DNA of 55,379 bases from Nemertoderma westbladi (lineage: Eukaryota > Animalia > Xenacoelomorpha): NCBI GenBank assembly GCA_032718475.1, contig JAUCBJ010005274.1, positions 1-55,379 on the forward strand, written 5' to 3'. Position 1 is the first letter of the stretch, and each line of letters opens with the position of its first letter. The position numbers were made by a program, and so were the translations under genes. This document shows positions 21,601-55,379 of the stretch, piece by piece. The notes below the pieces were generated by a model. The model saw only the letters and a list, made by a program, of their open reading frames with translations. It was not told where the DNA came from and searched no databases.

Positions 21601-21649
21601 GATTAAATCAGTCCAAATATAAACAAAACACAATAATCTAAAATAATTC

Positions 21650-28300: not shown

Positions 28301-28443
28301 CAAATGATATCCGACCCCAACGAAAGCACCTTCAAAAAGTCAATTTTATTATCTGCAAAACCTGTGCTGTTGTACGAGACAAATTTAAGTTTACTAAGAC
28401 TTAGACTACTAATAGGTTCAGTTAATGGTGGTGGAGTAGCCAT
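25356..28443 (-). pseudogene. LINE ORF2: APE endonuclease plus reverse transcriptase (one frameshift at ~26850, one stop at 26124)
   Basis: SYNSTG, ICLQEH, AGDLN, SLIDRF, SNHSPI (APE); QFGFQ, DLSKAFD, GVRQGSVASP, YADD (RT). Confidence 0.9.
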
Positions 28444-28515
28444 GATGTGATATATACAAGCGATAATAATAATATGCCATAAAAAATAACAAATCAGACT
28501 ATATATACACTATGC

Positions 28516-29694
28516 TTAATAAACAACCTGGGGCGGGGGGCCCCTCCGATCGACGTTTGAGCTAGGATAGAATACATACTTGCGAACACACACTCCCGCA
28601 GGCCAAATTTCTGGATTCAGCAACTCCTCTAGTTTATCGACCGAATAAGAAACCCGGAAGCTCATCGTGCGCGCATCATCGTGAGACATTTTTACGATAT
28701 CTTTCTCTGTAACGGTAATGTTACTGAACTTGAGATCTTCTACGATATCAGCTGCTGTAGTACCTCGTTGCAATCGGAAAACAAACACCGAGCCCGGAGC
28801 GGCTTTAGATCTCAAGGATGAACTACCGCCGGGACCGGATTTACTCTTTGTGCCCGTGCCCATAACGTACTCCGGTCGCTGGCGTCTTCTCTGAACCAAC
28901 TGAAAGGGAAGTTCGTTGTCTTTATCCTCCGGATTGCGCGACGGCGACAGCCGTGGACGTTTGCTACTCCCATTCCCGTCGCCCTGGGGGGCTACGGTAT
29001 TTGGAATACCTCGAGATCTCCCACTTTGTCCACGGGTTGGCGTTACGTACCGACGTGGACCACCCTGTCTTGGCGACATCCCTTGGAGGTGCTGCGTAAC
29101 ATCAGCATACAGAGGTTTGCGGGTAGCTGGTGGTGGCGCTAATGACCCTGGTCCATGGGGACCATAACCTGGCAAGGGAGGCGGTAACACCCCTGTCGAA
29201 GGCGTTCCCCACCCAGATCGCGAGATGGTAATCTTAGAATCAATACTAGATATTGACTCTTTCATCTTGTCAACCTTTTCATCCAACAATGATAACCTAC
29301 TTAGCATTTCAGTTTCTGAAATACTTGACCCAGAACCCATACCGGTACCGGCACAACCAGATTCAGATAAGGCCACCCCGAAACGCGGGAGGGACAGGGC
29401 CTCTAATGCCCCTACAGCGATAAATGGCAACAGCCCATCTTTATCGAGATCAACCATTCTCTCCCAAGTGTCCTTCAGATTGGCTTGGGCTACGGTCCTC
29501 TCAGCAGACTCACGACGAAAAACCATCTCCAACCCCACCTTCTCATAGAGTGCGGACTTCGCCTGCAAAATTTCTTCTGGAGTAAATCTCGCTAAACATA
29601 ACTCGCTACACGCAGCGTGCGTTTGCGAACTCAAACCTTGTAATAACACAGTTAGGCAGGAGTTTATAATAAATCCATTTGCATCAATATCCAT
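28516..29694 (-). CDS. LINE ORF1 protein (coiled-coil plus C-terminal RRM-like domain)
   Basis: Intact 392-aa ORF directly upstream of ORF2; VFVFRL...SFRV...LLNPEIWPAGVCVRKY is typical of invertebrate CR1-group ORF1. Confidence 0.8.
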   Translation of the reverse strand: MDIDANGFIINSCLTVLLQGLSSQTHAACSELCLARFTPEEILQAKSALYEKVGLEMVFRRESAERTVAQANLKDTWERMVDLDKDGLLPFIAVGALEALSLPRFGVALSESGCAGTGMGSGSSISETEMLSRLSLLDEKVDKMKESISSIDSKITISRSGWGTPSTGVLPPPLPGYGPHGPGSLAPPPATRKPLYADVTQHLQGMSPRQGGPRRYVTPTRGQSGRSRGIPNTVAPQGDGNGSSKRPRLSPSRNPEDKDNELPFQLVQRRRQRPEYVMGTGTKSKSGPGGSSSLRSKAAPGSVFVFRLQRGTTAADIVEDLKFSNITVTEKDIVKMSHDDARTMSFRVSYSVDKLEELLNPEIWPAGVCVRKYVFYPSSNVDRRGPPPQVVY

Positions 29695-29780
29695 AATCTG
29701 AAGATATTGGTCAGGCAGTCAGGTATTAATCAGGCAGTCTGTAAGCATTAGGTCTACTGCAGTACCCTAGCAATCAATCA

Positions 29781-31613
29781 TGTACAAGATGTCTTAGACA
29801 TAGACATTCAGAAGGTAAACCATGTCTCAGTGAAGAAGGTTGTCAAGTATGTAGGAAGGGTCACCATACCATTCTCCATTTGGATTCTAAACCAAATCCT
29901 AGTACAGTTGCAGCTATTACATCTGATTCAGGGGATGTTTCTTTGGCAACTTCGGGTGGATCTACATTACTTCCTACCGCAATCTGTCCTATAAGATTCC
30001 TAAATGATGGGAAGGAGGATGATTACTCTGTTCGTACAATTCTCGATCAAGCTGCACAACATACTTTTATACTCCGTCGAATTGTCAAGGCATTAGGATT
30101 GAAGACAATTAATAAGGTTTCATCTTCTATAGACGGATTTAATAAGGAAGGACCAAGGAAGGTTTATGATGAAGTTCGTTTCCGTATTTCAACTTCGGAT
30201 GGTTTAATTGAAACTTGGGCGTTAGTTGTAGATAAGTTGCCTCTTAGATTATCTTCCCCGGGTCGTACCAAGATGGTCTCTCAACTACAGCTGCGTGGAT
30301 TTAAGTTAGCAGATCCTCGTACCGGAGATGATTTATCTGACATTGGGTTGGTGATAGGAGTCGACCAGTACTTTAACTTTGTTTATGGGGAATGTATTCA
30401 AAGTGGTATTTATTGGCTTCCTTCTAATCTTGGTGATGTCATTGCTGGTACATTGCCTTTATGTGATTCCCAATCAAACTCAATTCAATCAAATGCTATT
30501 ACGGCTCTCCTTATTGGTTGTGTTGAAGAGTCGGATAATGTTGATGATGCCCTCGAACGACTTTGGAGATTAGATACAATCGATATCTCACCTGATGATA
30601 CCAACCCTATTGATGAAGTTGTTATGAAGGAATTTGAAGAAAACACTAAGTATGTTGATGGAAGATATGTTGTTCATATGTTTTCCAAGTCTACCATCCA
30701 ATTACGGATTAACGATAAAGCGACTTCAGTCGACATTGACGAATTTGTCAAAGAATCCTTTGTTATTGGAATGTTATAATAGTATTAGTCTTCAACAGTT
30801 AGAACGTGGATTTATAGAACTAGCACCCCCCTATATTGCTACGGGTTCTAAAATACACTACCTAGCCCACCATGGAGTTGAAAAACAATCGATAACAACT
30901 CCATTACGAATCGTATTCGATTGTTCAGCACGGGCTGGTCGCGGGTTACCGAGTCTCAACGACTGTTTGTATTCAGGACCGAGTTTAATCTCACAAGATC
31001 TCATTGAAATACTACTGCGTTTTCGTCTGAACCTGTATTGCGCATTGGCGGATATCGAGAAGGCTTACTTACAGGTGATATTAGATGAAAACGATCGTGA
31101 CGTCACATGCTTCATGTGGCCAGAGGATGCAACCAATCCTCACATTCCTTGGGTCACATATCGATTTCGAGTAGTCCTTTTTGGTGCTACTTGTTCCCAA
31201 TTCCTTCTCAATGCTACTGTGCATCATCATGTCCGCAAACTAAACCCTACATGCGCTCAAACGTATTCTCAATGGTTTGTATGTAGACAATTTACAAGCT
31301 AATGATAATTCTGAGCATTGTTTAATTAATTTTTATAACTAAAGTCGTGGTATTTTAGCCGCTGGTAGGTTTCCTTTAAGGGAGTGGGTTACTAATTCAC
31401 CAGAATTAGCTGAGTTGATAAAAGTAAACCATGACGGACCTAAAGTAACTAATAATGAACAAAAGGTTTTGGGATTATGTTGGAACATGTCTGATGACGT
31501 CATAGGATTCCAAGATAGGAACATGACATCATCAGCGGTTATTTTAACAAAACGTAAGGTTGTTAGTTTGGCATCAAAGTTTTTTGATCCATTGGGATTC
31601 ATAAATCCAGTGA
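29781..31613 (+). pseudogene. pol: Family C gag end, protease and RT (frameshifted)
   Basis: ORFs 29880..30779, 30634..31302 and 31415.. carry BEL protease and RT motifs. Confidence 0.85.
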
Positions 31614-32720
31614 TGTTCGCGCTTTTAAGACTTTTGGCAGTTTAACCCGCCAAATCTATATGTCTTCTAGGTTATAAATCGACTCTAGCCTATGACAAGT
31701 ATTTGATACAAATAAATCCAACATTAGCCGAAGCCAGTCTATGCGCGACCATTCACCCGCTGGATATACCCGGGAGACTGGATTCGGATGCTTTAATTTG
31801 ATTGCGGTGCAGGCCTACCGTACTATTCGATTGATCGTTAATATATAATCTCTGACAAATATTATTCACTTTCGGGAAATATTAGCAGTTCCTTTAGGAC
31901 GTGGCGCTCTATCCATATAAACAGAGTTATGACTTACACTATACACAACGGGATGGCTTATAGATCACAAAAGGTGCATTCTTTAGGAAATGCTTTGTTA
32001 CTCGGTCAAGCACATACAGACTATTGCACACCACCGCACACTGAATTGCCGATATTCACTGCTTTTAATCATGTATAAAGAGAACAGCAACCGACATTTG
32101 TAGGGCCTATTAAGTAGCATTGAATTCACTACAAACCACGATAATGTATGTCGCAATTGCTATATGTAACCGGTCTCTCTAACCTTAGTGTATCAAGAAG
32201 ATTGGGGTTTCTGATCGTTTATCAATATTCTCCAAATAACAATATGCAAACGAATGATACATTTAATAACAAACCGTAAATAGCAGTAAATAATGCGGTG
32301 AAAAGCAGTTTGAGTTTACAGCACGTAGTATGCAGTACCGTGCCAGACCAGGTAGGTAGTGTGCCAAGTTAACCAAGATAACAGTTTTGTGATCTTATAA
32401 TTAAAGACGTTCTAATGTTGGAAAATTCAGAAACATTCCACAGCCGATGATGTTCTAAGCTGGGAAAAACGTCATTACTGAATCATGTGATTCGTGGTAT
32501 GCATTTTACACACAAAGAGGTAATCTATCACTGTGATTGGTCAACCGTTGTTCTGATTGGTTGATCGAACGGAACAAAGAGGCTACACAAGTACAGCAAA
32601 TCAGCCAACCAGCGGGCGGATTGTGCCACTAGAAGATACAGTTTAGAGGATTTGAGCGAATGGGGGAAAACTGGATTACGAATGGAAAAAGGCCAGTTAT
32701 ATCCCCCAAAAGCTTTTACA
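31614..32720 (-). repeat. 3' LTR of A2 (1107 bp)
   Basis: TGT..ACA termini; PPT GGGAGCGG at 32721-32728; CCAAT boxes on the minus strand near 32535 and 32556. Confidence 0.9.
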
Positions 32721-32798
32721 CCGCTCCCAGAAAATGGGATTTAATTATATAAAATATAAAAAATCACAGTTTCTAAAATATAAAAATACTCTAAACAG

Positions 32799-34319
32799 TT
32801 AGTCTTTCTTGCGCGGACGGCGTTTACGCAGTTTCTTGAGGCTAGCAAGAGTCCTTTTCTCTTTGGTGCGAGCCACTTTACTAGGAGGGCTACAACTCCT
32901 GGGTGAAGGGTGCAATACAATTGCATCAGAAGGTTTAAGGTTACGGTCGGTGTCTCGTCCATTTCGATATGCTTCTCCTCGAGCTGATTTTCCTCCGCTT
33001 GTCGTTGGATACGTTCGTCCAAAATTCTCGCAGAGAATAGGGTTGTCTAAGTTCGATATCTTCTTAGAGATTCTGGATTTCCCAATCGAACTGAGATAAA
33101 GCCAATTCATTTATCGCTTGGACTTGCTGTTACAACTTACGTTTATCTGAACAAACGCAGGTTTCCTTTCTGATCTTTGTAGAATAGCGTTTAACTCGTT
33201 TCGTACAACGCTCTCCTCCACCTTGATGAAGGGTTGTATCGCGTTAAACTGGGACGACTATACGGTTGAATGGCGATATTAGGTATCCGCGTCCCAATAC
33301 GGCTAGGTAAGATGGGCGGCTAGCTAGAGCTCACTGCCGGAGTGTTACCGATTAATTGTTAGGGTAACACTAGATCTTTGAACAGTGAATACAGCTCGTG
33401 AGGATCCGTGATACTATCAGAATCGAAAGTCTGATGTCTAACTAAGGAATGAGGAGGTCTGACCGAGGATTCCGGAACTCTGATCGTAGGTTTACTCAAG
33501 GATCGTCTGAGTCGAGAGAGCGTAGGTGATACATCGAATAAGTTTCGCTCAAAACTCCAGTAAATATAACGAGTACAACTGTGTTTAGCATAACATCTCC
33601 GCGGATGTTTGTCTTTCCGTTTGCGGATTGGGTCTAGGGCATTCATCGCAGTAATACCAAAGACGCACGTCCTGCATGGGAAACGCGAGTGATCGTTCGC
33701 CGGTTTTACAATATTCTTCCATCGGTTCGAAGCTATCCGGTACAACAGGTAGCGGTCGATCGGCGGTAAGATACATCATAGTGAAATAGAGTCGTTTGAG
33801 TTCTATCATACAGTCATGATGTATACCTTGAAGATATCGAGTTTCTTTCTAGATTCTGTTGACTGGCTATATTGAGATATGTTTCGCTCAAAATTCCAGA
33901 TACTCGTTGAAGTTGCTGCGCTTATCCGGATCTTCAACGTCCTCTCTTTCGAGTCGGTTCCGAATAGAATTCTCGTGTTCTATTCTCGGTTTATCGTTAC
34001 GACTACGCTGGGCATGGTATTTAAATAAAACCATTTCCCTTTCGGTGTCTACGTCGTCCGTATCGTGTAAATCGATAGAATGGCCAGTGGTTAAGAAGTC
34101 CATATACGTACCATTACGATGCGTGTAGCGAGCGGTGAATTTTCTACAGTCCAACCCACACGCAAGTTGCTCCCGGGACATTGGCGGTTAGATATAACGA
34201 CCATCGTCCTCCGTAGTAGTTGGACCAGCGTCGCCGCGTATCAAGCTATCAACAAACGCTTGTAAAGGTAGAGTATATCGCTCCCTGATACCGAGATCAT
34301 CTTCTATCAACTCAATCAT
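32799..34319 (-). pseudogene. A2 accessory gene, with a ~2.7-kb deletion removing the exonuclease and zinc knuckles
   Basis: Homologous to 16121-14750 and 12048-11893, fused at ~32952. Confidence 0.85.
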
Positions 34320-36011: not shown

Positions 36012-39000
36012 CTAAGCTGGGGAGTCCCTAGATGTTTGTTGGATTAGGGAGGTGGTTGTGGGAAGAGTATCTTGTCTTCCATAGTTTCCGGAGAGTTCTC
36101 TGTCTCTTTCCAGTAAACATAAGCGACCAACTGGGCGATTGAGCTGCTGTGTCTCGAAGACAATTCCCGGTTTCTTGAAGTTGCGTCGCATGACGACGAG
36201 TAGTTCTACCGATCGCACCAAACCGTCATCCGAGATGTGAGTCTCGATGATACGACCTGTCTGCCACCGCTTATGTGGAAGATCTACATCCACAATAAGA
36301 ACCATGTCTCCAGCGCTGACGTTTTCTTGCTGCGCAAACCACTTAGTTCAAAGTTGTAGCGTGGGCAGATAATGTTTTTCGAAATGGTCAGCGAAACGAC
36401 GGGATAACAACTGCATGAGTTGCCAAGTTTGCCGGCAGTATTCGTCTCCGTCTGTGATTTCCGATTGTGGGAGCATGGCTACAGGTTTCTTCAGTAGGAA
36501 GTGCGCGGGTGTTAGCGCTTCCAGGGAATCGGGACTCGATGAGACTGGCATAAGCGGTCTCTCGTTGAGATAGGCGGCGATTTCCTCCATTAACGTCCGC
36601 AAAAGTTCGTCGGTGAGATACGCGCGGCAAGGCACTATAAAGTGAAATGCTGTCTTCACACTTCTTATTAATCTCTCCCAACTTCCTCCCCACCAAGGGG
36701 CGTCGGCGGCGTTGAAGGTCCAGCTAGACGCTGTTACTCGTAGCTGATCGTCCACCTGTCTTTGGTTCCAATCTTTGACGTAAGCTTTGATTTCATTGTT
36801 GGCACCAATGAAGTTTGTTCCCTTATCAGATCTCATCGTGTTACTAGTGCCAAAGCGAGCGATCTGTCGTCGTAAGCTTAATAGAAAGCTGTTGGTAGAT
36901 AAATCGTTCACCATATCGAGATGGATAGCTCTACAAGTCATACAAACAAAGATGACACACCATCTCTTGACTATAGTCCTAGCACGATATACTTCAATAG
37001 GGCCAAATAAATCTACACCGGTATTAGTAAAGGGTGGTTCATAGAAGCTTACTCGTTCCCTAGGTAATTCTGCCTCTCTCTGTGTTAAAGGCCTACTGAA
37101 TGCTTTCCTACAGGGTATGCAGTTCCTAAGAACTTGGTTCAGAGCTCTACGGGGTTTATAAAAATAATAGCGAGTTCGAATTTCGCTAAGAACTCGTTCT
37201 CTACCAGCATGATAAAGTTTGCTGTGAACATCTACAATCATCTTGACTTGTATCTCAAGATTTCTAATGAGTATGGGAAACTTAGTGTCAAAGGATAATG
37301 GAGCATTCGTTAATCTTCCTCCAACACGTATCAACCCATCTATCATTGTGCTAGAGAAATGATCCCTTAAGCGCATCTGTGGATTTCTCAACAACAGAAA
37401 ATACTTATCGGAATCCTCATAGCATTGCAGGAGTCTCAGCATCTGCTTGTTGGTTTCTTCATGCTCCTGATAACTGATCTTCTCCTTCAGAAACCTGTCG
37501 GATATCTTATATTTGGGAAGATCTTTAATAACATGGACCTGCACCGATGTTATTGGAGTGGTATCACTTTTGGTCTTCATCCCGGAGTAGTGATGGTGAA
37601 AACATCTTTTTAAATATGTAACGGCCTTACAGAGCCGATTCCAGGAACTGTAGTGATGTATCGCTCTCTGCAGGAGAGGTGAGAGTCCTTGCGAGACGTC
37701 TGGTATTCCAGATTTCCAATCCTTCTCACGGATTTCCACAACAAGTTTATTTGTGGCTGTGGGTTTCTGATCCAAAGCGTCGTCTCCGGAAGTATGTAGT
37801 ACAGACAGATCTACCATGGGTTTGAATAACTTCGATTTACACGCCCAAGTTTTAGGTTTGACTTTCTCTGCTCCCTTGGCCTGTCTAATCTCTGTGGTAG
37901 TAAGATGAGGAGGCCATTCTTCTTCTTCTTTGTAGAGGAAGTCGGGTCCACCTAACCAGTCTGGAGTATCTACCAGTTCTTGTGGAGTTGCTCCCCTGGA
38001 GGCGATGTCTGCTGGATTAATCGTTCCGGGGCAATGTCTCCATTGATCCATCGTCGTGCGACTAAGTATAATGGCTACTCTGTTGGTAACGAAGACGCTG
38101 AACTGACAGACTTCATTGGTTATATACTCCAACACGAGTAAAACGTCGGTCCAATAGACAGTTTTCTCCAGTGGATAGTCGATCTGTTCTGTTACATTCC
38201 GGCCGATGGCTGTAGCGGTATAGAGCCGCTTTTAACTCCGCTCGAGGAACTTTCAACTTATTGTTTATCAATGCCTTAGAGGTAACCAAGGCGACTTTGA
38301 TTCCGTCCGGAGTTTCCACCCTTAGGTAGGCTACTATACCTATTCCCATATCGCTGGCGTCTCCAAACACATGGAGTTGATAGGAATACGTAGGGAGAAC
38401 ATGACCAAAATATGAACGGGAAATTATAAAGTTCTCGATGGCTGGTAGAGAATCTTCCCATTTCAACCACTTCTTTAATAATTCTCCCTTAAGTGGATCG
38501 TCCCATGAGTGGTTTTCAAGCCACATTTGTTGTACTAAACTCTGAGCAATCAATATAACTGGGCTAATAATTCCCAATGGATCGAAATAAGTGCTCAGGA
38601 TACTTAAACAAATCCGTTTAGTCCGAACTGGATTATCTCGCTGTTTTAGTTGGAAAAACAGGATATCTCTTTCTGTGTCCCATTTCAAACCAAGGGTCTT
38701 AGTTTCTGGAAGATCATCTTTTAGTAGATCTAGGTCTTTCGCTCCTCGATCTTCTACCGGGATCGACTCCAGAAACTCATGGGAGTTGCTGGTGAATTTA
38801 GTTAATCGAAATCCACCTCTTTTTAAGCACTCTACCGTTCCTTTAGCGGCGTCAATGGCTTCTTCGACTGATGGAAGGGACTTTAGATTATCGTCCATGT
38901 ATATATCCCGCTTGATGTTGTCAATCACCTCTTTAGAGAAGGCTTCTCGGTTGTCATCTGCAGTTGTGCGCACCACTGAACAGGCGTTTGAAGGGCTTGA

Positions 39001-40494
39001 GATTATCCCAAAAGCCTGGATGGTCATCCAGTACTCCACCGGTTTCTGGTTGAGGTCTCCTTCAGGCCACCACAGAAATCGTAGGCTATCTCGATCCCTA
39101 TCCAGCGCCTTGACTTGTAAGAACATGCCTTCTATATCTGAGGTGAAAGCAATTGAATATTGTCTTAATCTTAAGAGTATTCCCAACAAGGATTGGAGTA
39201 AGTTGGGTCCGGGTAACAATTCGGAATTAAGGGATTGGCCCATATAGAGGGCGGAGCCGTCAAACACCACTCGTACCTCATGGGGTTTACCGGGTTTGGG
39301 AATGTAATGGTGAGTTAAATAATACGTTCTCTCAGTTATAGGTGTTTCTTCCGGTACTAGCTCCGCATATCCCTTGCTAATAAATTTCTTCAACTGCGTT
39401 TGATACATTTCTTTAGCTGAAGAATTTGCCGTAAGGCGTCAATGTAGTTGAGCAATTCTTTTCTCCGCCAAGGGTCTGTTGTTTACGAACTTTGGTTCTC
39501 GCTTTCGGAAAGGTAGACCGATCTCATATCTACCTTGATCTTTAAGAAAACGTGTAGTTGTCTCTTGGATCTGCTTGGCTCTTTCTTCCTCTACCGATAG
39601 GGCCTTATCGTAGGAATTGGGCTCTACAGCCTCTTGAGTAAAGAATTGTACGGCGTGTTCATCCCGAGTCTTGGCATTATAACGTTCAATGACGTCATTA
39701 AGTTCGTCGTTATAGTCGTCTCGTTCTGATGGAAGAAGGAGCTGACATAAGTGCACTTGGTTTTGCCAAGTCTCGTTTTCCTTAAGGAGATCTATGGTAT
39801 TCTCCTCATCAAAAAGTTGGTGGACATCGTCATTATCTGAGGAGTATGGTGTTCCCTCAGTTGGATCGTCTAACTCACTGCTCTCGACTTCCCATTCTCT
39901 TACCTGATATACCTGGTCTTTCGGTAATCTTTCCATGAGAGTTCTACGGGAAGGGCCAGTAAAGTACCAACCCACTCTAGTTCTTCCCGCATAAGCTTGT
40001 AGTGGTTGCGGTTGAGCAGGCCGTTTCTCCAATGTCTCGAGCGCTTCATGCGCGTTTTGACCGATGAGTATTTGCACTCCAGGGTAATCGGTGTTGAATC
40101 TAGGTATTTCAAGCTGCTGGGTGAAATCGTCCTCATCCCAATTATAAGGTTCCACTTGGGTGGTAGCGAAGTTCTTTATCGCCACCATTTTTACTGACCT
40201 TATACTATGTTTTCCTAGTTCATCCTGGGGGGTGGACAACGCGCCTACATAATAATCCGCTATTACGGTAGATTTCCAAACCTGCATAATTCCTGACATG
40301 TTTAGCTTAGTTCGGAACTTGGGTTGTCCAGCAAAGATGTCTTCGGCTAGTTCTTTGTCGATGAATGTTCCTGTGCTACCGGAGTCAAGGAGGGCGTTCA
40401 CTATATAACTCCTTTTAGGTCCGTGGACCCTTAACTGTACTACAGGAAATTCTCGGATTCCTACATTGGAAGTTGGCACTTTCCAAGATGGTTG
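36012..40494 (-). pseudogene. pol: A2 pol: protease, RT, RNase H, integrase (stops at 39439 and 36348, frameshift at ~38200)
   Basis: ALLDSGS; YLTHH..VRVVFDGS, SDIEGMFLQ, YMDD; VFGDAS; H..H..CIPC, GVDLFGP, SDKGTNF, WWGGSWERL. Confidence 0.92.
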
Positions 40495-43400
40495 TCAATC
40501 AGAAGTAGTTAGGGGGAGCTCACTGTCGGTTTCCTTCTCATACGTAAGTGCTCGATACACTGCGGTATTTATTAAGTAACAGGATTCGTTTTCGTCTGAG
40601 AATTCGTCCGTATAGAATCCTTCCATTTCAGAACTTTGGTCGGAGAATTCGTCCGTATAGAATCCTTCCATCTCAGAACTTTGGTCAGTGTCGTTCACAT
40701 CACTGAATTGGACATGTAGTTCGGACTCACTTGCCTGACTCGGGCTGTTTCTTTCGAATTCGGTGTGCAACAAAATATGATGTTTCGCGCCGCACTTCGC
40801 ACACCTTGCGTCGGAGTAACAGGTTCGCCGTTGGTGTCCTCGTCTGAGACAATTATAACACAACCGCTTATCCCACATGACTTCACGTCTATCCTTTAAT
40901 GATTTCTTTAGGAATTCATTACACACATTTAAACGGTGGGGCCCGTCGCACAACACACATTTGGGCTTGATGTTACTTACTTTAACATGTGCTGTGTGGT
41001 GCACGCTCGTTCTTTCCTCGGGATTTCTTACATGAATTCTCTTAGGAGACGTAGGAGGAGTTTTTCTTACCTGTTCTCTCCTGTCATTGGTTCGAGACTT
41101 GAATTTACTTACGTCCTTTAGGGTTTTATTGTCATAGTAAGATCTTTCAGTATCTTTCCCGCTGTCTTCTTCTTGAGAAGCCTGGCTTTCGCCCTCGTCG
41201 GTATAACACACTGGTATTATTTTTCTCCTAGAAACGGGTTTTTCACTCACCTTGTTCTCCAGGGTCTTCTCTCAGGACTGCTTTAGGAGCTGTAATTTTA
41301 CCTCTCCATCCAAGAATGACATGAGATCAGCCATGGTAGGGTCTCGTCGTTGTTGTTCCATCATATATAACACTTTCTTGTCCCAGCGTGTACCTACTCC
41401 ACCCTTGGGCAAAGTAGATGCTAAGGCTCCTACAACCATAGAATTATGGTATTCATGAGACTTACCTAACCAATCTAGTTGTCTACAGATCTCTTGAATC
41501 TCGTCGGAAAACTCTATAATCCCGCTGCTAAGAAACTTTCGGGGCGCCATTAATTTCGCATACAAATACCTAGCTATGTTATTCCTATTACCATACCTGA
41601 TGTTTAATGTATCCCAAACTTGTCTTAATCCATCTGGATGTCCAATAAACTTTAACGCCATTAACTTGGGAGATCCTTCCAAGCACTCGATGAGGAATCT
41701 AAGCTTTTCTCCGTTAGATAACACGGAGTTCTGTATGTTATCTTTGTAATATTCATTAAAAGGTAACCATTTCATCTCATCTCCATTGAATTTGACGATC
41801 TCTCCCATCTTTACCGCTTGACGGGCTTCGGTTCTAGCCATTTGACGCGTAAAACTTTCTTGGGCCATCGTATTATTTAATATCGAGTTATCAGTATATA
41901 AATTTCTCGGATTATTATCAAGTCTATATGGAATATCACTGTCAACAGGTTTATAATTACCCTTAATAGGGTTTACTATAGGAGTTTCTACTTCACTAGC
42001 AGTATAGATGCGTATAGGCTCCACACCTTGCGCATGAAATACTTCAGACCTAACAGGTTGACACATTGTTACAGAGGGTGGTGGTATACCCTTTTGTAAA
42101 TTTACTAACTTATCGCGTTCTGACGCGATACTCTGCTGCACTTCTTGCAACGCTAACCTACCCTCTCTTACTGCTCCCTTTAACTGCTGAACAGTCCCTT
42201 CCAACTCCCGGACCTGCCGGGAGGAACATTTACAATGTTCCCTCAGCTGCCCGACCAGGAGACCCATCTCCCGTCGTCCCTCAGCTACCCACTCGACCGC
42301 CGAAGCGGGAGTCGCCAACGTAGTAGCGGGCAAGCGAGAGACGACGGGCGATAAATTCTTGATATCTCGCTCGGCGTCCAGGATGGGTTCGGACTCGGGA
42401 ACAGTCCTACTGGGCACAGGTAGTTTCGTGCTGTGTAAAGGGAATTTAGAGGTAGGTTCTGGGAGTACAGGTGTCTCTATCACCAAAAGGGTGGCTTCAA
42501 AGAACAGGCCTAATTATTTCAGGCTCATCTACTATAGTAGGGAGTCTTTCTACTGTAATAATTTGGTCTGTGGGTTCTGTACTACCTAAGTCTGTGCTAG
42601 CTAGTTGCCTTCTCCCAGCTGGGAGCAGATTAGGCAATTTCTGACGGTGAGGCATTCTTCTACGTCTGTTGGAACGAGATCTATTTCCTCCGCCTTCAGG
42701 ATCAGTGGTATCGCCTTCATCAGATGACGTAACACTTGCGTCCTTCTTCTGAGGTTTCTCTGCCGTCGCTTCGCTTTCCACTTGAGAAAAGACAGCGTCT
42801 GTTGATTCTCCTTGGGTCATGTGCTCGGTTAGCAGAGCTTTCCATTGAGTCGTTTCTTGGACTTTAAGACTCACTCGCCAGAACCAAGTCTTTACGGCGA
42901 CCCACAACGACGTATCTTGGCTTATCCTTGAGACTTTCTTATAGGCTGAAAGAATTAGTCTGATCCACAGAACTCGTTCGCGAACTTGATAAAGCAGCTC
43001 TTCCTGCTCCCGAGGTCCGTGAGGCAGCTGAAACAGCTGCTCCGCCAATCGCCCCAGAGAGCTGAAGAATCTCTGTACATATCCTGCTGCCGACCCCTTC
43101 CACCTAGCCGAATCCCTAGTGTACCATACCACTCCCATCCTGTATAAGTCCTCCCAGCCAGCTTCCGATAAGTTAAACGGGAGTCCGGGTCCGGGGAAAT
43201 TCCATTGCGTCTCGACAATAGACTTCAGTTCCTCCTTCGTGTATCCCGCATAACTGACCTTGGTCGATCGCTTACTTCTCGCCCAATCGATTTGGTGTTC
43301 CTCCACCGCAATCAATACCCTTTTGAGTACGGCTACAGAATGGATGAGAAGGGGATCCGAATAAACCGCATCTGCCATCTTTGCTCCACGCTCGGGTGTC

Positions 43401-43522
43401 AGCTCTACAGTATCCGCACTACTGGAGCTGTCGGGCCGCTGAGAAATGAGTTCTCGGCTCGAGTGTTGCTGCTGTTCCGCTGCTTCTTGGTCCCGCTTGA
43501 CCTGAGCTCGAGTGCCTATGAT
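40495..43522 (-). pseudogene. gag: A2 gag, main part (frameshift at ~42490, stop at 41272)
   Basis: Homologous to A1 gag; triple knuckle; stop at 41272 is AGA in A1; in-frame 45-nt duplication DQSSEMEGFYTDEFS x2. Confidence 0.85.
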
Positions 43523-44072
43523 TGTTAGCTTATCCAATTCCGCTAACATGAACCCACAAAGTAAGCCGTTGAGCAATATTGGGAGCACGAGGTTGATTAC
43601 CAATCAACCTCGTGTCAGCCCAGTAAACGGGGACAATAGGCCCCAAAGGAGACACACACAATAAGGGTCAGGGGCCAAACCCCTAACAGAGAGAGAACAA
43701 CAGGGGCAACGGGAAACACACCAGGGAAGGTGAAAGGGCGAGAAGTGGGATATTAGCCAATGGGGGGACAGCATCGACTAGGTACAGTAATATGGCCAAC
43801 TGTGCAGTACATATATTACCTGTTGGTGCTTCCCTATTCAGTTTAGTTTACTCAGTCAGATCAGTAGGGTGGAACGGGGACTTCTGTCACCGTCCGCTAC
43901 CGCCATCATACATATATTACCTGTAACCGTGTCATACTATACTGTGCTATATCAGACTATTATACCTTTATACATATTACCGAACATCAGAACTCTTTTA
44001 CCTTTCACACACGGCGGGGACGCGTGGATAGAAAACCCAACGGATAAACCGGGATCCGTAGATCCCGTCACA
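43523..44072 (+). repeat. 5' LTR of element D (550 bp)
   Basis: Direct repeat of 50124-50674. Confidence 0.95.
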
Positions 44073-44202
44073 GTGACAGAATCAGATCCACCCAGCTGCC
44101 CTGACAGTGATAGAATCCTAGCAGCTGCCCTAACAGTCTGACAGTGATAGAACTAGATCCAACCAACTGACAGACTGTGGCTGCCAGCCACCAAAGACGA
44201 AG

Positions 44203-45612
44203 ATGAGTCGAGAGAAAGGAACGACACCGCCGCGGACCCCGGACGACGATCTAACGATCCGCGAGGCCACGGCGAGACGATACGAACCCACGACGCCGGT
44301 CGATGCTACGCCGACCACGTCGACGCACGTTGACGCCACGTCGATAACGAGCGACCCGGCGAACCAAGATGTGGGGGGTCGTCTACAAAGAGAAATCGAG
44401 TCGGGAGGAGAAGAGGAAGACGAGTCGACGCGGAGCGAGGGTCGACGTACCGATGTCACCGGTCAGCCACAGGCCGAGGACGACGGACGGTCCACCGGAA
44501 CGGCGACGGTGGGGCCGTCGGTACGACGTCGGACCCGGAGAGATGGAGGAGAGGTCGGCGACGAGGACGTCGGGGTTTCTGATCGACTTCGACGGGCCTA
44601 CAACGCGACCCGGGAACTACTAAAGGAGGCCAAGGAGGGGGCGAGGATAGACGAGGTCAAGATGACAAAAGGACTAGGTGAGTCGAACAGATACTTTGAT
44701 CACCTAGTGTGTTCTGGGCAGAGAGAACTAGCCGAGGAGAGAGCGAGGGGGGTTGCCAACGAACTGATTGAACTATGGGAATGTGGGGGTATGGAACCTA
44801 GCGTAGTGTACGTAGGGCCATACTTAGTCGATGCCTGGGGAGTAAAATTAGTGGGTTGGAGGAGACCTGAGGAGGGCGAATCCGAGGTTAAACCCGAGGA
44901 TTCGGTCTCGTCGGTCGGAGGAAGTTCCGGGAGGCGGGGGAAAGTTAATAGGACGGAGGGGCGGCGGGAGTCCGTCGCAACCGATAAGTCTGCTACATCC
45001 TCCGCAAAAGAAAGAAGGGTGCGGGAGATAAATCTGACGTATAAAATAGAAATGGCGGCGAATAAGCAGAATGGGTTAGAGAGACAATTGAGGGGTAAAA
45101 CCGCATACTTAGAGAAGTTAGGAGAGTTGGCGAGGGAGTATAGAAAGAGAGTCGAGGAGTGTATAGAGCGGGAGATGAGAGTAGGGGACGAGCCGGCGAT
45201 GTGGCTTGAGATAATTGCGAGAGTTGAGTTGTTCGAGCAGCGTAACCGAGAGAGAGAGATAGAGGCAGAGCGTGAGCGGGATGATTTGCGTGCCCAGCTA
45301 AGGGGGCTTGCGCAATATCAAGCCAAACTAGACCAGCGCCGACTAGAACTGGCGCGGTTGGAAATATCAGAGAGTGAGACCCCACTTACAAGCACCGGGC
45401 GAGAGAACCAGAACTGGTGTAGCCGTACGGGCGGGGGGGGGGGGGGTAGTAGTAGTACGTTAGAAATAGTTAATATTAATAGTACCGTAGTAAATAACCC
45501 TAATCCCTTTATTACAGGAAATAATATTTTACCTGGTAGTAGTAATTTAAATTTAAATTCAAATAATAAATTAATTCAATTCAAACCCGCAAATAATTCG
45601 AATAATATTTAA
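44203..45612 (+). CDS. Element D Gag-like protein, N-terminal region (coiled-coil); probably continued to ~47158 through frameshifts
   Basis: 469-aa ORF starting 130 nt after the LTR; VKPEDSVSSV..S-rich motif followed by a coiled-coil, as seen in BEL/Pao Gag N-termini; downstream ORFs break at G homopolymers. Confidence 0.55.
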   Translation: MSREKGTTPPRTPDDDLTIREATARRYEPTTPVDATPTTSTHVDATSITSDPANQDVGGRLQREIESGGEEEDESTRSEGRRTDVTGQPQAEDDGRSTGTATVGPSVRRRTRRDGGEVGDEDVGVSDRLRRAYNATRELLKEAKEGARIDEVKMTKGLGESNRYFDHLVCSGQRELAEERARGVANELIELWECGGMEPSVVYVGPYLVDAWGVKLVGWRRPEEGESEVKPEDSVSSVGGSSGRRGKVNRTEGRRESVATDKSATSSAKERRVREINLTYKIEMAANKQNGLERQLRGKTAYLEKLGELAREYRKRVEECIEREMRVGDEPAMWLEIIARVELFEQRNREREIEAERERDDLRAQLRGLAQYQAKLDQRRLELARLEISESETPLTSTGRENQNWCSRTGGGGGGSSSTLEIVNINSTVVNNPNPFITGNNILPGSSNLNLNSNNKLIQFKPANNSNNI

Positions 45613-45744
45613 GTTTGAAAATAATAATAATTCTAATTTAAATAATTTAAATCCCGTTTCAAATTCTAATAATTTAATTGATTTAACAAATAATATTGGG
45701 AATGGTGCTATTAATATGAGCGTGTCGGACGTACATAACCCGGC

Positions 45745-46320
45745 AGACGGGGGCCTGGTAGGCCACGTACTTAGTAGGCAGGAGGTGGCGGGGTTGAGCC
45801 AACCCGACGGCGGCCTGGTAGGCCACGTAGTTGGTAGGCAGGAGGTAGCGGGGTTGAGCCAACCCGAGGTGGGCCTGGTGGGCCACGCAGTAGTAGAGAG
45901 AGAGGCGGGGGTGAATAGACCCAGCCGTAGTAAAGACAGTGCGTCGACTAGAGAGGGGTGTAGAGACGAAGTAAGAGATAGTGAAGTTAGATGTGGCGAG
46001 TGGGGGGGGGGCTACGAGCGCCCCACCACATAAGATTAGTGGCGAGAGAGGGGGGGCAGAGAATGCCCCACAAGGGGGGTGTAGAGGTGTAGTAGGAGGT
46101 AGTGAAGTTAGAAGTAGGCGGTGGGGGGGGGGGGCTACAGGAGCCCCACCACGAAAGATTAGTGGCGAGAGAAGGGGGGTAGAGAATGTCCGACAAGAGG
46201 GACGCAGAAGTGTAGTAAGAGATAGTGAAGTTAGAAGTGGCGGGTGGGGGGGGCTACGGGCACCCCACCGCGAGAGATTAGTAGAGAGAGAGGGGGGGCA
46301 GAGAGTGTCCCACAGGCGTC
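45745..46320 (+). repeat. Tandem repeats in element D: ~60 bp x2.5, then ~120 bp x3
   Basis: ggcctggtaggccacgta..gcaggaggt..gggttgagccaacccga units; then agtgaagttaga..gggggggctac..cccacc..agattagt units. Confidence 0.8.
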
Positions 46321-48078
46321 GGCGGATAATGCGCGGGCCGAGCTAGGTAAACCGCAACACCCGGCGACGGAGAGTAATAAGGGGATTGCGAGTATCCCCA
46401 GCGGCGTGCGATCGAGCAGAGAGAGGCAGGTTGACGTCGCGAGAGGGCAGGCGAAGCGTCGAGCCCGATCAGAAGAGGGAAGAAGAACAGTGGAGTTTAA
46501 CCGGGAGGTCGACGAGAGATCTCATGAGCCGGAATACTGCACTGAAAAGAGAAGAAGAGGAGATAGTAGAAAAGGTGTCGCCACGAACGATAGGAGTGTG
46601 AGGACAGATAGCGGACCGTCGATAGTAGAGATGGAGTTAGGGAGTCAGTGGGGTCGAACTTCGGGAGATTGCCGTCGCCCCGGAGAAACGCACCGCACAC
46701 CAAGAGAGGGGTACAGGAGGTACCAATACAGAGTCGAGAACAGGAGAGGGGATCGGAGAGAAGCTTCCCGACGGGATATAGCTGCCGATCGAGAGTGCGG
46801 TAGTCGCGGGGAGATTCGAGATTCGCGAAGAATAAACTTCGGTTCGGAAGGGCACATGCAGACTGCAGGACATACTGTAGGCCTTACTGCACATACTGTT
46901 ATAGGCCATGCTGGGAGAGATAGAGTAGGCGATGGGGTAGCGCGAACGACGGGATTAAACCCGGAAGTCGCGGAGTACATACCGGTAGGTAGGCGAGAGG
47001 TGGGTAGGCCTATATCGGTACAGCAGCATGACTATAATACACAGGGACATAACATATATCCAGGGGAGGGGGGAGTTATTGGAGATAGATGTATGGTCCC
47101 CAATGTATTAACATCAACCCCAGTACCAAACATACCGGCCGGGGGGGGGACAGGGTGACATTCCCCCATCACAATATCGACAATATACCCCGATAGGAGC
47201 AAGAACATCGAACTCCCTGGACGAGAACAGGTCGTGCGGACAGTCACTACCACACGCGAGCTATACAGGGGACTGCTAGTCCACAGTTAGCTGGTAGCAG
47301 GGCCACACCGTGGCGGGGACAGGAAGAAAATAACACCAAAAATAAACACAATCCCAATATACCCAGTAGGCCGAGTCTAGACAATCGAAACATTAAATCG
47401 GTACATATAAACCTAAGCGCGATACGTGAAGGACTATACAGGAAACGCTATAATCCAGGATTCCAATGTCTATTACATCGGGACGGAACCCATAAGACCA
47501 GGAGTTGCAAGTACTGGCAAGCGTTGCCCAAACGAGATCGTGTAGCCTACACAGACGCAAACGGACTGTGTGGTAAAAGGACACAGATCCGGAGAGTGTT
47601 GGAAAGGGAGAGGATGTGAAAGGACTAGGGGCAGAGAAGCCCATGAGCAAACATAAAGGAGTCGGGAAAGTAGAAGGAGGCGTGTTGCATACACACGCAG
47701 GACTGACACAGTGCGAGGGGGCATTACATGGGCAGACACCGCGTATACCGAGGGACGAGCGGGGGTCGTCGAGGGCTTTAATGCCAACGCACATACGAAG
47801 GGGGAGGCTAGCGGAGGTAGTGTCGAAGAGAGTGTGGCGAAGAGTTAGAGGGCGTATAGGAGGGCAGCAGGAGAGTGCCTACTGGAAGAAGGGGCACGTG
47901 AGAGTTTTTAGTCGTCCAAAGTTTTGGACTGAGGGGGGTGGGAATGAGGGCGAGACGCCCTTCCCACGCATAAAATATAAAATAATTATTTAATTAAAAT
48001 TAATGAAAATAATTAAATAATAGAGTAGGTAGAAGTTAGGTAGTAAGAGTTAGTTAGTTAGCTAGTTAGTTAAAGGGT

Positions 48079-48615
48079 GGTACGTAGTACCGATAGTTAG
48101 TTAGAGGGTTAGAGGGTACGTAAGTACCGCTAGTTAGTTAGAGAGTTAGAGGGTACGTAAGTACCGCTAGTTAGTTAGAGTTAGAGGGTACGTAGTACCG
48201 CTAGTTAGTTAGAGAGTTAGAGGGTACGTAAGTACCGTTAGTCAGTTAGAGAGTTAGAGGGTACGTAAGTACTGCTAGTTAGTTAGAGTTAGAGGGTACG
48301 TAGTACCGCTAGTTAGTTAGAGAGTTAGAGGGTACGTAAGTACCGTTAGTCAGTTAGAGAGCTAGAGGGTACGTAAGTACCGCTAGTTAGTTAGAGAGTT
48401 AGAGGGTACGTAGTACCGCTAGTTGGTTAGAGAGTTAGAGGGTACGTAGTACCGCTAGTTAGTTGGAGAGTTAGAGGGTACGTAGTACCGCTAGTTAGTT
48501 AGAGAGTTAGAGGGTACGTATTTACCGCTAGTTAGTTAGAGAGTTAGAGGGTACGTAGTACCGCTAGCTAGTAGAGAGAGCTAGAGTAGTAAGAGGGTAC
48601 GTAGTACCGCTAGTT
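48079..48615 (+). repeat. Minisatellite, 15 units of ~34-37 bp, each with a GGTAC-GTA(A)-GTACC hairpin
   Basis: Unit agagggtacgta(a)gtaccgctagttagttagagagtt counted directly. Confidence 0.9.
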
Positions 48616-49049
48616 AGGAGTGTTAGTAGAGCAGTAGAGGGTTGTGGGCACCATAAGCGCCACGTAGATGGAAGTAGCAGTAGAGGTTGTGGGCACCGTA
48701 AGCGCCACGTAGTTAGAGTTAGTAGGGAATGCGCTGAACTTAGTGGGGCACGGGCGTGATGATGTGTTTGATGTAAGAGCAGGGTATGTTAATTAGGGTG
48801 GGTGCCGGGCACAAGAGGTGCCGGGCACAAAAAGAGTTAGTAAGAGTTAGTAGTAGAGTTAGTTGAGTCAGTAGTAGAGTTAGTTGAGTTAGTAGAGAGT
48901 TAGGGTAGAGGTTAGTAGAGAGTTAGTAGAGTTAGTAAGAGTTAGTAGTAGTTCACATAATTAACGTACCCACTCTGCCGGCATTCAGAGCGTCACGTGC
49001 AGGCGAGTGGATGTAAAGGAAGTAAGTTAGAGATAGAGTAGAGTAGTAG

Positions 49050-49432
49050 AGAGGGCACATAGGGTGCCAGGTAGTAGAGTAGAGTGTTAGAGGTAGCAGA
49101 GAGGGCACATAGGGTGCCAGAGAGTAGAATAGTAGAGACGGGCACATAGGGTGCCAGGTAGTAGAGTTAGAGAGTTAGAGATAGAGTAGAGTAGTAGAGA
49201 CGGGCACATAGGGTGCCAGGTAGTAGAGTTAGAAAGTTAGAGATAGAGTAGAGTAGTAGAGAGGGCACATAGGGTGCCAGGTAGTAGAGTTAGAGAGGTA
49301 GTAGTGTAGTAGAGAGGGCACATAGGGTGCCAGGTAGTAGAGTAGAGCAGAGAGGGCACATAGGGTGCCAGGTAGTAGAGCTAGAGAGGTAGTTGAGTAG
49401 TAGAAGGGCACATAGGGTGCCAGATAGTAGAG
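49050..49432 (+). repeat. Array of 8 GGGCACATAGGGTGCCAG units with variable purine-rich linkers
   Basis: Copies near 49053, 49103, 49140, 49202, 49263, 49316, 49354 and 49406. Confidence 0.9.
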
Positions 49433-50123
49433 TGGTTGTGGGCACCGCAAGCGCCACGTAGTTAGAAGAGTGGGTAGAGTTAGGGAGTTCTAGTTAAAGG
49501 GCTAGAGAGTTGGTAGACTTAGATGAGTCAAGTAGAGTTAGTAGAAGTAGAGAGTTAGTAGGAGTTAGTTAGACTTAGTAGTGCTAGTTAGAGTCGGAGA
49601 GTTAGTAGAAAGTTAGAGGCTCTCAGTTAGAGCTAGAAGTAGTAAGAGTTAGTAGTTAGTAGATAGTTAGATAGTTAGAGTTAGTAAGCAGTAGGTAGAT
49701 GGTATGATAGCACAGGGGTAGCATTAGAGATTAGGGCCTTAGGGAGGGCAAGAGAGATAGCGAGAGGTGGTATGGAGATAGTGTGGAGAGAGTGTGGGCG
49801 CAATTCAAGCGTGGGGGGGGGGGAGAAGTGAGAGGAAGAGTGAGGGACAGGGAAGTCCAAGAGTTAGAGCAAGAGAGGAGAGGAAGAGTAGAGTCAGGGC
49901 GAAAGTGTTGGGGAAACAAAAGTTGTGTGAGAGAAGCGCACGATCGGCCCGACACGAAACGCCAGAGGGTAGCAATATCATACCCATAGGGAGCGGCCCG
50001 GAAAGCCGGCTCCGAAAGAAAATAACCCACCCCACACCCGATACTAGATCGGGATCCAGCGGAATTGTAGCGCACTTTTTGGTGGATGCTATCTTCTCAC
50101 CGGGAAGATAGCATGGGGGGGAG

Positions 50124-50674
50124 TGTTAGCTTATCCAATTCCGCTAACATGAACCCACAAAGTAAGCCGTTGAGCAATATTGGGAGCACGAGGTTGATTA
50201 CCAATCAACCTCGTGTCAGCCCAGTAAACGGGGACAATAGGCCCCAAAGGAGACACACACAATAAGGGTCAGGGGCCAAACCCCTAACAGAGAGAGAACA
50301 ACAGGGGCAACGGGAAACACACCAGGGAAGGTGAAAGGGCGAGAAGTGGGATATTAGCCAATGGGGGGACAGCATCGACTAGGTACAGTAATATGGCCAA
50401 CTGTGCAGTACATATATTACCTGTTGGTGCTTCCCTATTCAGTTTAGTTTACTCAGTCAGATCAGTAGGGTGGAACGGGGACTTCTGTCACCGTCCGCTA
50501 CCGCCATCATACATTATATTACCTGTAACCGTGTCATACTATACTGTGCTATATCAGACTATTATACCTTTATACATATTACCGAACATCAGAACTCTTT
50601 TACCTTTCACACACGGCGGGGACGCGTGGATAGAAAACCCAACGGATAAACCGGGATCCGTAGATCCCGTCACA
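50124..50674 (+). repeat. 3' LTR of element D (551 bp)
   Basis: Direct repeat of 43523-44072, preceded by the PPT. Confidence 0.95.
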
Positions 50675-50850
50675 ATGATAGACCTATGGTGTTGGACTAG
50701 CCTAGGGTCTGATATTACTACTGGAGGGATGATCTTTCTTACAGTAGGAGGTGAATTGAACTTCGGTCTCACACGTTCCACACTCCTGTCTGGGTCACAG
50801 ATGGTTGTATCTAGGAGACTGTCTGACAGGTTTTGCTTTGTGCCAGACAT
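50675..50850 (-). CDS. gag: A2 gag N-terminus
   Basis: MSGTKQ...HHRSII joins in frame to GTRAQVK (43517 downward) once element D and one TSD copy are removed. Confidence 0.8.
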
Positions 50851-50978: not shown

Positions 50979-52398
50979 TAGGGCGGTGCGTTTTTTACTT
51001 TTTTTCGATTTCATTGTTCTACCGGTGCACAAAAGTTGCCAAATGGTAAAAAAATAAGGCAAAAAAAAATGTCTTTAAATTTCGTCTATATCTTCACGGA
51101 TCCCAAGAGGGTTGAAATTTTGAGCCATCGCGATGCGCCATAATTAAATTTATAGCAATATAGTAATATCACATTAATGAAAGATCAATGACTCAAGAAA
51201 GAACTTCCTGCATGCATCAAATGTCATCAAATGGGTCCAAACTTAGTTAGATACCAAAATTTTAATTTTTGGATCAAGGGAACAAGTGCCACAGGAACAT
51301 GCACATCGACAGAACCTACCATTTGGCACAAGTAATGATAATTCTAAATTTTCGCGATGGCAACTTTGAGTTCTACTGCATTAATATTATGCTCATTAAA
51401 ACCGCAATGACCGATTTAGTGGGGGTAGACACCTTCAAAACAAACGTAGTTTGTTTTGGATAGTTATTGAAATATCGCAGAAAATGTGAAGTCCGGCACA
51501 AGTCTATATCACCGCCTTGATGTGATATGGACAAATACACGAAAAATGATACTTTGAATTATCTCCAGGAATCAAGAATAGACATATAACAGAAATGATC
51601 GATATAGTTGATGTAGACACCTTCGAAATAAGAGTAGAGTCATTAGTGAGTTATTGAGTCTTGAGTTATTTTACAAAATGTCAAGACTATGTCCACCAAT
51701 TAATACTTGATATTGAGTTGATCCATTCCACACATTTTGTACAAAAACTGTAGTGAATTATTCACTACTCTTTCATTTTGAAGGTGTTTGTATACACTAA
51801 ATCAATTAGTTGCAGTGATGTGTATATTTTTGATGCCTTAAGATAATTAGAAGTAACATTTTTGTGTAGTTGTCTATAAATCATCAAGGCGGTAATGTTG
51901 ACTTGTGCCGGACTTAACATTTTCTGCAATATCTCAAGAACTATTCGCTCTATGCTTGTTTTGATGGTGTTTACCCCCACTAATTCGATTATTGCGGTTC
52001 TAATGAGCATAATATTAATGTAGTAGGAGAACTAGAAGGTGGTCATCGCGAAATGTGAGAATAATCGTCATTTGCGCCAAAGCGTAGGTTCTGGCTATGT
52101 GCCTGTGGCACTATTCCCTTGATCAAAAAATTAAAATTTTGGTATCTAACTAAGTTTGGACACATTTGATGACATTTGATGCATGCAGTAAGTTCTTTTT
52201 TAAGTCATTGATCTTTCATCAATGTGTTATATTGTTATAAATTTCATTACGGTGCATCGCGATGGCACAAAATTTCAACCCTCTTGGGATCCGTGAAGAC
52301 ATAGACGAAATTTAAAGAAATTTTTTTTGCCTTATTTTTTTACCATTTGGCAACTTTTGTGCACCGGTAGAACAATAAAATCGAAAAAAAGTAAAAAA
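50979..52398. mobile_element. Foldback / long-TIR non-autonomous DNA transposon (~1.4-kb palindrome) in the A2 leader
   Basis: 50991-51640 is the reverse complement of ~51760-52398; flanked by (TA)n; right terminus appears clipped; no ORF. Confidence 0.85.
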
Positions 52399-52419
52399 CA
52401 ATATATATATATAATATAT

Positions 52420-54205: not shown

Positions 54206-54479
54206 GATCTGAGCAGGCTTACACGTCTTCTGCTCAATATTAGCCTGCAGATAAATAAAACTGACAGAAATAAGTAAACCATGCAAAGGAATAAGGGGTG
54301 ATCAATCCCTAATCCCCTAACAGCCTACAATATACAATATATCACAATCGAAATAATACTGCTGTACCTGTACTGCTGTAGGTACCGGTCCGGGTGGTTA
54401 GGTAGTCAGGCCTACTAGGTACGGGTTGTCCGGTACTTCAGCGTTATTGCCTACTGCAATCTAGAATTAAAACTGTTAT

Positions 54480-55379
54480 TGTTCGCGCTTTTAAGACTTT
54501 TGGCAGTTTAACCCGCCAAATCTATATGTCTTCTAGGTTATAAATCGACTTTAGCCTATGACAAGTATTTGATACAAATAAATCCAACATTAGCCGAAGC
54601 CAGTCTATGCGCGACCATTCACCCGCTGGATATACCCGGGAGACTGGATTCGGATGCTTTAATTTGATTGCGGTGCAGGCCTACCGTACTATTCGATTGA
54701 TCGTTAATATATAATCTCTGACAAATATTATTCACTTTCGGGAAATATTAGCAGTTCCTTTAGGACGTGGCGCTCTATCCATATAAACAGAGTTATGACT
54801 TACACTATACACAACGGGATGGCTTATAGATCACAAAAGGTGCATTCTTTAGGAAATGCTTTGTTACTCGGTCAAGCACATACAGACTATTGCACACCAC
54901 TGCACACTGAATTGCCGATATTCACTGATTTTAATCATGTATAAAGAGAACAGCAACCGACATTTGTAGGGCCTATTAAGTAGCATTGAATTCACTACAA
55001 ACCACGATAATGTATGTCGCAATTGCTATATGTAACCGGTCTCTCTAACCTTAGTGTATCAAGAAGATTGGGGTTTCTGATCGTTTATCAATATTCTCCA
55101 AATAACAATATGCAAACGAATGATACATTTAATAACAAACCGTAAATAGCAGTAAATAATGCGGTGAAAAGCAGTTTGAGTTTACAGCATGTAGTATGCA
55201 GTACCGTGCCAGACCAGGTAGGTAGTGTGCCAAGTTAACCAAGATAACAGTTTTGTGATCTTATAATTAAAGACGTTATAATGTTGGAAAATTCAGAAAC
55301 ATTCCACAGCCGATGATGTTCTAAGCTGGGAAAAACGTCATTACTGAATCATGTGATTCGTGGTATGCATTTTACACAC
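54480..55379 (-). repeat. 5' LTR of A2 (partial)
   Basis: Near-identical to 31614-32513. Confidence 0.95.

Follow-up and report, generated by a model that had tools for sequence, protein, structure and literature searches.

The family of element A, a BEL/Pao LTR retrotransposon present as a young and now defective copy in the genome of Nemertoderma westbladi, probably starts reverse transcription from a fragment of its own RNA and not from a host tRNA, as far as can be judged from its sequence. The window, that is, the whole stretch of DNA analysed, comprises 55,379 nt of contig JAUCBJ010005274.1 (GCA_032718475.1), and all coordinates are those of its forward strand. The signature found in A is considered a real feature and a variant of a known self-priming mechanism, here in BEL/Pao.

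Identity and layout of element A

By its proteins, A is a BEL/Pao LTR retrotransposon. Its internal ORFs match the Pfam families DUF1759 (E 3e-13) and Peptidase_A17 (E 2e-31), with an integrase zinc finger downstream and an aspartic protease match below the cut-off, and the domain order (PR-RT-RH-IN) is of the BEL/Pao type. The RT/RNase H frame shares 39–47% identity with BEL/Pao polyproteins from corals, fish and echinoderms, and PF05380 is present in 119 of the 120 homologs among the matches listed. No chromodomain was found among the ORFs scanned. These Pao-type domains and BEL/Pao homologs rule out that A is a misclassified Gypsy element, and A is therefore not a Tf1/sushi Gypsy; the same domains, together with the PF05380-bearing homologs, bear out the BEL/Pao assignment made in the first-pass annotation. 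The main parts of A and of its sister element A1 are as follows.

10625–11814, minus strand: 3' LTR of sister element A1, whose 5' LTR lies outside the window
31614–32720, minus strand: 3' LTR of A, 1107 bp, TG..CA, with CCAAT boxes at 32560 and 32540 and the 11-mer at 32388-32378
32721–32728, minus strand: polypurine tract before the 3' LTR of A, identical in A1
36015–50850, minus strand: gag-pol of A, from domain matches (DUF1759, CCHC motifs, protease, RT, Pao peptidase/RNase H, integrase)
54480–55379, minus strand: 5' LTR of A, cut by the window end with about 207 nt missing, 895/900 nt identical to the 3' LTR

The two LTRs of A differ at 5 of 900 comparable nt, and its gag-pol is disrupted by stops, one frameshift and the insertion of a nested LTR element. 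The reference description of Belpaoviridae shares with A the gag-pol order of protease, RT, RNase H and integrase, an LTR length within 0.2–1.2 kb, TG..CA ends and a polypurine tract (PMC8742986). The ICTV account of Belpaoviridae/Semotivirus further gives 4.2–10 kb as the genome size and describes an 18-nt PBS to which host tRNA-Arg or tRNA-Gly binds (PMC8742986), whereas A has no tRNA site, exceeds this size even when its insertions are discounted, and possesses extra downstream ORFs.

The window holds several other features. In both A (40497-40495) and A1 (19077-19075), gag closes on the minus strand with an in-frame TGA and a following CAA, immediately ahead of the protease frame; this is a candidate stop-codon read-through signal for Gag-Pol. 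A 702-codon extra ORF (13263-15371, minus), which has a broken counterpart near 33300-34200, lies between the integrase and the 3' LTR; no Pfam match and no homolog were found for it, and its C-terminal part is similar to a 3'-5' exonuclease of the WRN type (atlas score 0.92; 38% of the cluster members carry PF01612). A 387-codon ORF (11893-13056, minus) with CCHC-like motifs and a basic tail ends just before the polypurine tract, and A retains only the end of this ORF. Moreover, the young LTR element nested in A's gag (43523-50673, plus) has 550-bp LTRs that are 99% alike and an ATGAT target duplication, and no pol match was found in it. This nested element is also without TGG and has a flush self-complement of 9 nt at LTR nt 360; the match is only suggestive, since matches of at least 9 nt occur at 37 of 983 internal positions. 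A 1.4-kb foldback inside A's 5' leader (50990-52399), with arms 81% complementary, is probably a separate inserted element. Two 1.27-kb copies (8902-10165 and 20916-22184), 94% alike and each with an internal inverted repeat, flank A1, the 5' part of which is missing. The window also contains a broken LINE with endonuclease and RT (25356-29718, minus), a protease-RT fragment of another LTR element (29745-31302, plus) and a host otopetrin exon (222-1223, minus).

The candidate priming slot of A and of related families

On the minus strand, the sequence immediately after the 5' LTR end (...CGCGAACA at 54480) reads ATAACAGTTTT (54479-54469), and its complement, AAAACTGTTAT, occurs once per LTR, at 55254-55244 in the 5' LTR and at 32388-32378 in the 3' LTR. 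The complementarity is exactly 11 nt long and flush with the LTR end (offset 0).

54469–54479, minus strand: non-tRNA primer-binding slot, flush with the LTR end
55244–55254, minus strand: candidate self-primer 11-mer in the 5' LTR, LTR nt 333-343

The perfect flush complement in both LTRs had been claimed before at these positions, as had the lack of a tRNA-type PBS, and both observations hold: no TGG was found within 180 nt of the LTR-leader junction. The 18-nt tRNA-complementary PBS of the ICTV description is absent from A, and ARAGORN found no tRNA genes in the window. A splice-built alternative to the contiguous 11-mer was not found in A's own LTR. The LTR does carry a sequence resembling a 5' splice site, AG/GTTAG at 55049 on the minus strand (AG/GTAAG in A1, 11185), and the leader a strong 3' splice-site-like tract at 54245; splicing from 55049 to 54245 would drop the slot from the translated RNA.

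As for chance, an 11-nt match at offset 0 arose in 21 of 20,000 dinucleotide shuffles of the LTR and a match at offsets 0–5 in 91 of 20,000, while 47 of 104,038 other window positions show comparable matches. The shuffles thus give about 1e-3, higher than the 3e-4 of the first estimate. Taken alone and set against the shuffles, the match in A is suggestive, short of decisive. Exact-pattern scans returned no matches in viral contigs and none in metagenome contigs, and no BEL/Pao relatives were found in the viral contigs.

A metagenome scan for relatives covered the best 79 of 547 confirmed loci, which were grouped into 51 families, and a long-range repeat is present in 43 of these 79. In 12 loci, belonging to 10 families, the two LTR copies diverge after CA, which fixed the LTR end, and L062, which ends in TA, was added by hand to give 11 readable families; loci whose end is not CA or not fixed (L015/L016, L038, L051, L070/L074 and L077) were set aside. 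Among the readable families, drawn from the best 79 of 547 loci, TGG occurs in the first 8 nt after the LTR in 0/11. At offsets 0–3, a stretch of 10–15 nt in nine of the 11 is complementary to a GT..AG junction within the family's own LTR. After two misses had been seen by eye, the offsets were widened to 0–5, as in the published criterion (PMC6317226), and a self-complement of 10–15 nt was then present in 11/11, in 10 families across an LTR splice junction and in L066 contiguous like that of A. The controls yielded 0–2/904 each for the null and 0/11 for the 3' flank. In A and in all 11 families, the end of the duplex coincides with the LTR end or lies at most 4 nt from it. The predicted LTR introns have GTAAG-type donors in 9/10 and pyrimidine-rich acceptors. 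In a cross matrix, slots fit the LTR of their own family better than those of others, except among L007, L019 and L049, which are close kin and make up 3 of the 11 families.

L069, a sibling copy of L078, showed no self-complement match. L051 is the one relative inspected in which TGG follows the shared LTR stretch (84-110) at a distance of one base, and it has no self-complement; it sits on a long basal branch of the tree and is possibly tRNA-primed. Six families without a fixed LTR end, with 57–82 candidate ends each, include five with 11–15 nt spliced matches at plausible ends and one ambiguous case, and the look-elsewhere effect keeps them out of the count. A quick tree scatters the 11 families across the fetched set, while A, whose RT is 38–47% identical to those of the relatives, lies on a long branch of unsure place; as this tree has no tRNA-primed outgroup either, the relatives support A by analogy.

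Variation, predicted structure and transcription start

The counterpart of the primer in A1 differs from that of A by one letter.

11360–11370, minus strand: A1 counterpart of the primer, ATAACTGTTAT, one letter different from A's AAAACTGTTAT

Nine letters had been described as retained in the diverged LTR of A1; the stretch kept is in fact 10 nt, AACTGTTATC (11368-11359). This word ties with the CCAAT word as the longest common to A and A1 in the diverged part of the LTR, where other common words of 7–9 nt are also present, and A and A1 are identical at 41/60 positions in the 60 nt upstream of the 11-mer and at 31/60 in the 60 nt downstream.

Contigs of four public runs were aligned to 54210-55379; those of X5, guessed to be an RNA run, do not reach the LTR-leader junction. 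The summed read-contig depth of the leader past the junction is like that of the LTR, about 1e5 in X1 and X3. The leader is thus repeated with the family at high copy in the reads, which rules out that the slot is unique flank. The depth falls sharply at the slot, with both flanks remaining high, so that the slot is the variable part. Three listed X3 contigs cross the slot with just 11–14 letters on the LTR side, and none of the contigs listed carries the 31 letters on each side by which bridging was defined. From the LTR of A1 it had been predicted beforehand that an A1-type junction reads A at slot position 10. One X3 contig departs from A exactly at this position, and its next two letters agree with the complement of A1 11370-11360; subtraction from bins puts its depth at roughly 2,500, against about 700 for contigs that cross the junction like A. 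In a second X3 contig (depth about 41), the LTR end and leader are unchanged but enclose an entirely different slot, also without TGG. These read variants come from single contigs unlinked to A1-type LTRs. Of the compensatory changes that the first-pass annotation put forward as a check, the predicted position-10 change was thus seen in reads, but in a contig not linked to an A1-type LTR.

The variation bears on two other explanations. That the 11-nt match in A, relatives aside, arose by chance is quite improbable: even though P is about 1e-3 to 5e-3 for one AT-rich element when a genome scan inspects many, and even though A is distant from the relatives that were tested, chance would have to account for the predicted change at position 10, the core retained in A1's diverged LTR and the same geometry in 11/11 relatives. 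Priming by a host tRNA half or another small host RNA is very improbable, the least likely of the explanations considered. Six letters of the 11-mer may resemble a GUU anticodon loop, which would favour such a primer. Half-tRNA primers without a TGG site also occur in Copia lineages, according to portions of PMC6317226. A host RNA, however, would explain neither the exact LTR complement, which changes together with A1, nor the third, unrelated slot, nor the family-specific slots that match their own splice junctions.

Folding of 54700-54430 predicts two helices that flank the slot, the first seven letters of which are unpaired.

54609–54614, minus strand: helix 1, U5 strand, pairing with 54488-54483 in the predicted fold; same letters in A1
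54483–54488, minus strand: helix 1, LTR-end strand, predicted fold
54666–54680, minus strand: helix 2, U5 strand, predicted, -18.7 kcal/mol duplex
54449–54461, minus strand: helix 2, leader strand, predicted; 54461 varies in reads to the letter pairing with A1's U5 letter

In helix 2, the pair C54666:G54461 of A faces an A at the U5 site of A1, and T at 54461, which would pair with this A, makes up 403/528 of the depth in X1 and 700/700 in X3. A second U5 change, at 54678, accounts for 1,011/1,539 of the depth in X4 and 590/75,286 in X1, and a leader change in the position-10 contig, read by eye, would match it; one or two helix pairs are thus apparently compensated. A competing helix is predicted to cover the last four slot letters. 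In nested folds of longer RNAs, the primer duplex lies 8.4–15.2 kcal/mol above the minimum with a pair probability of 0, and opening the slot and the primer costs 6.1 kcal/mol locally and 9.2–14.3 kcal/mol in long folds, against -9.5 kcal/mol gained; when the RNA is cut at the slot end, the primer duplex is present in the minimum structure. Since helix 2 crosses the primer duplex, a topology beyond the fold program, energy neither proves nor excludes this duplex. The fold of the whole leader is unremarkable (z-score -0.86).

The slot sits in a structured domain formed by U5 and leader, where a competing helix is predicted to cover its last four letters, and this would also be in keeping with a pairing that is real and selected but structural or regulatory, such as an RNA switch for packaging, dimerisation or translation, with something else as the primer. 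This is unlikely, if somewhat less so than chance: the duplex ends flush with or at most 4 nt from the LTR end in A and 11/11 relatives, which is where a primer end must lie, and no other primer site was found in A (180 nt) or in the relatives (first 8 nt).

Regarding the start of transcription, the CCAAT boxes placed about 150–170 nt upstream of the 11-mer were confirmed at 172 and 152 nt in the 3' LTR (32560 and 32540), those of the 5' LTR being beyond the window. A start at 55254, which would make the primer the first 11 nt of the RNA, found no support. The CCAAT word is common to A and A1, as is ATTCAGT 56–79 nt below it, which includes an initiator-like motif.

55343–55347, minus strand: initiator-like TCAGT shared with A1 (11484), candidate start from motifs

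CCAAT boxes usually lie 60–100 nt above the start, and TCAGT is an initiator consensus, so that the shared CCAAT and TCAGT point to a start at about 55345, some 90 nt above the 11-mer. The TATAA at -26 of the 11-mer (55278) was rejected as a conserved promoter because the 3' LTR and all covering contigs in X1, X3 and X4 differ there. In two relatives, TATATAA lies about 135 nt above the primer. From these motifs, a start about 90 nt upstream seems somewhat likelier than one at the 11-mer, and their positions modestly favour an internal primer. It counts against an internal primer that a second cut or a stop against plus-strand overrun would be needed, for which no obvious candidate is seen. 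Tf2 uses alternative start sites, one of which alone includes the primer (excerpts of PMC5341516), and several starts may by the same token coexist in the A family.

Proposed mechanism and comparison with known systems

In the proposed mechanism, the predicted helices between U5 and the LTR end and between U5 and the leader would hold the slot between them, and the LTR 11-mer would anneal to it. A nuclease, by analogy with Tf1 the RNase H of A's RT, would cut just 3' of the 11-mer, and RT would extend the cut end into U5. Plus-strand synthesis would then copy the primer into the slot of the next generation, which would keep slot and primer in step and allow wholesale turnover of the slot between conserved flanks. 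In Tf1, the PBS has been copied into DNA at the 3' end of about half of the cDNA (parts of PMC11042837). A would carry its primer ready-made and without an intron, whereas most relatives would have to splice theirs together, and the intron-less form may have arisen when the intron was lost via a spliced 3' copy; an intron-bearing copy of A was not seen. A broader scenario, that a wide BEL/Pao branch dropped tRNA priming, with most members splicing a self-primer from an LTR intron and A being intron-less, its primer cut internally and its slot rewritten each cycle, is tentative and slightly less likely than not.

To our knowledge, self-priming has been proven only for Tf1. A nematode Cer element is said to encode its own tRNA-like primer. 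In the portions of PMC6317226 available, Tf1/sushi elements are reported to self-prime, and the same is predicted for Tcn1 and the plant TAR Copia elements (Houba, Osr-1), from an LTR complement of at least 10 bp located 0–5 bp after the 5' LTR; A has 11 nt at offset 0. Unlike A, these predicted cases belong to Copia (plant) or chromovirus lineages, and no splice-built primer is mentioned in those portions of the paper (PMC6317226).

The closest likeness is to Tf1/Tf2 of Schizosaccharomyces pombe (Tf1/sushi), which like A have an 11-nt PBS complementary to their own LTR. Excerpts of two sources describe how the Tf1 PBS pairs with its own LTR RNA and how two flanking duplexes complete a 'pretzel' (10.1101/2022.12.06.519325, PMC7175516), and in A two helices are predicted to lie on either side of the slot. 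The Tf1 PBS also begins with ATAAC (parts of PMC11042837), as does the slot of A, which is probably a coincidence because the slots of the relatives are without ATAAC. Tf1/sushi elements are Ty3/gypsy chromoviruses, whereas A is of a different superfamily, BEL/Pao. Furthermore, the primer of Tf1 is the first 11 nt of its RNA, with the cleavage shown experimentally, whereas in A, known from sequence, the start may lie upstream; and unlike in Tf1, about 775 nt separate the primer start from the slot in A, and its relatives split the primer with an intron. The tRNA-independent BEL/Pao priming first suggested for this element is supported by sequence comparison (the letter change, the helices and 11/11 families), but not in its strict Tf1 form.

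No account of self-priming or of a splice-built primer in BEL/Pao was found in the literature covered, which included few subscription papers or older element descriptions. In the excerpts consulted, PMC3118150 and PMC554778 contained no discussion of the PBS, and PMC8220671, PMC3286476, PMC5443660 and PMC3601003 contained nothing on BEL/Pao priming.

If true, self-priming would extend to a third LTR superfamily and to invertebrate animals, a departure from the host-tRNA priming of the Belpaoviridae reference description (PMC8742986). It would provide annotation tools with a new boundary signal for BEL/Pao elements seemingly without a PBS. Moreover, it may free the elements from the host tRNA supply and from silencing by tRNA fragments at the PBS, and, if true in the spliced relatives, it would make the onset of reverse transcription dependent on the host's splicing.
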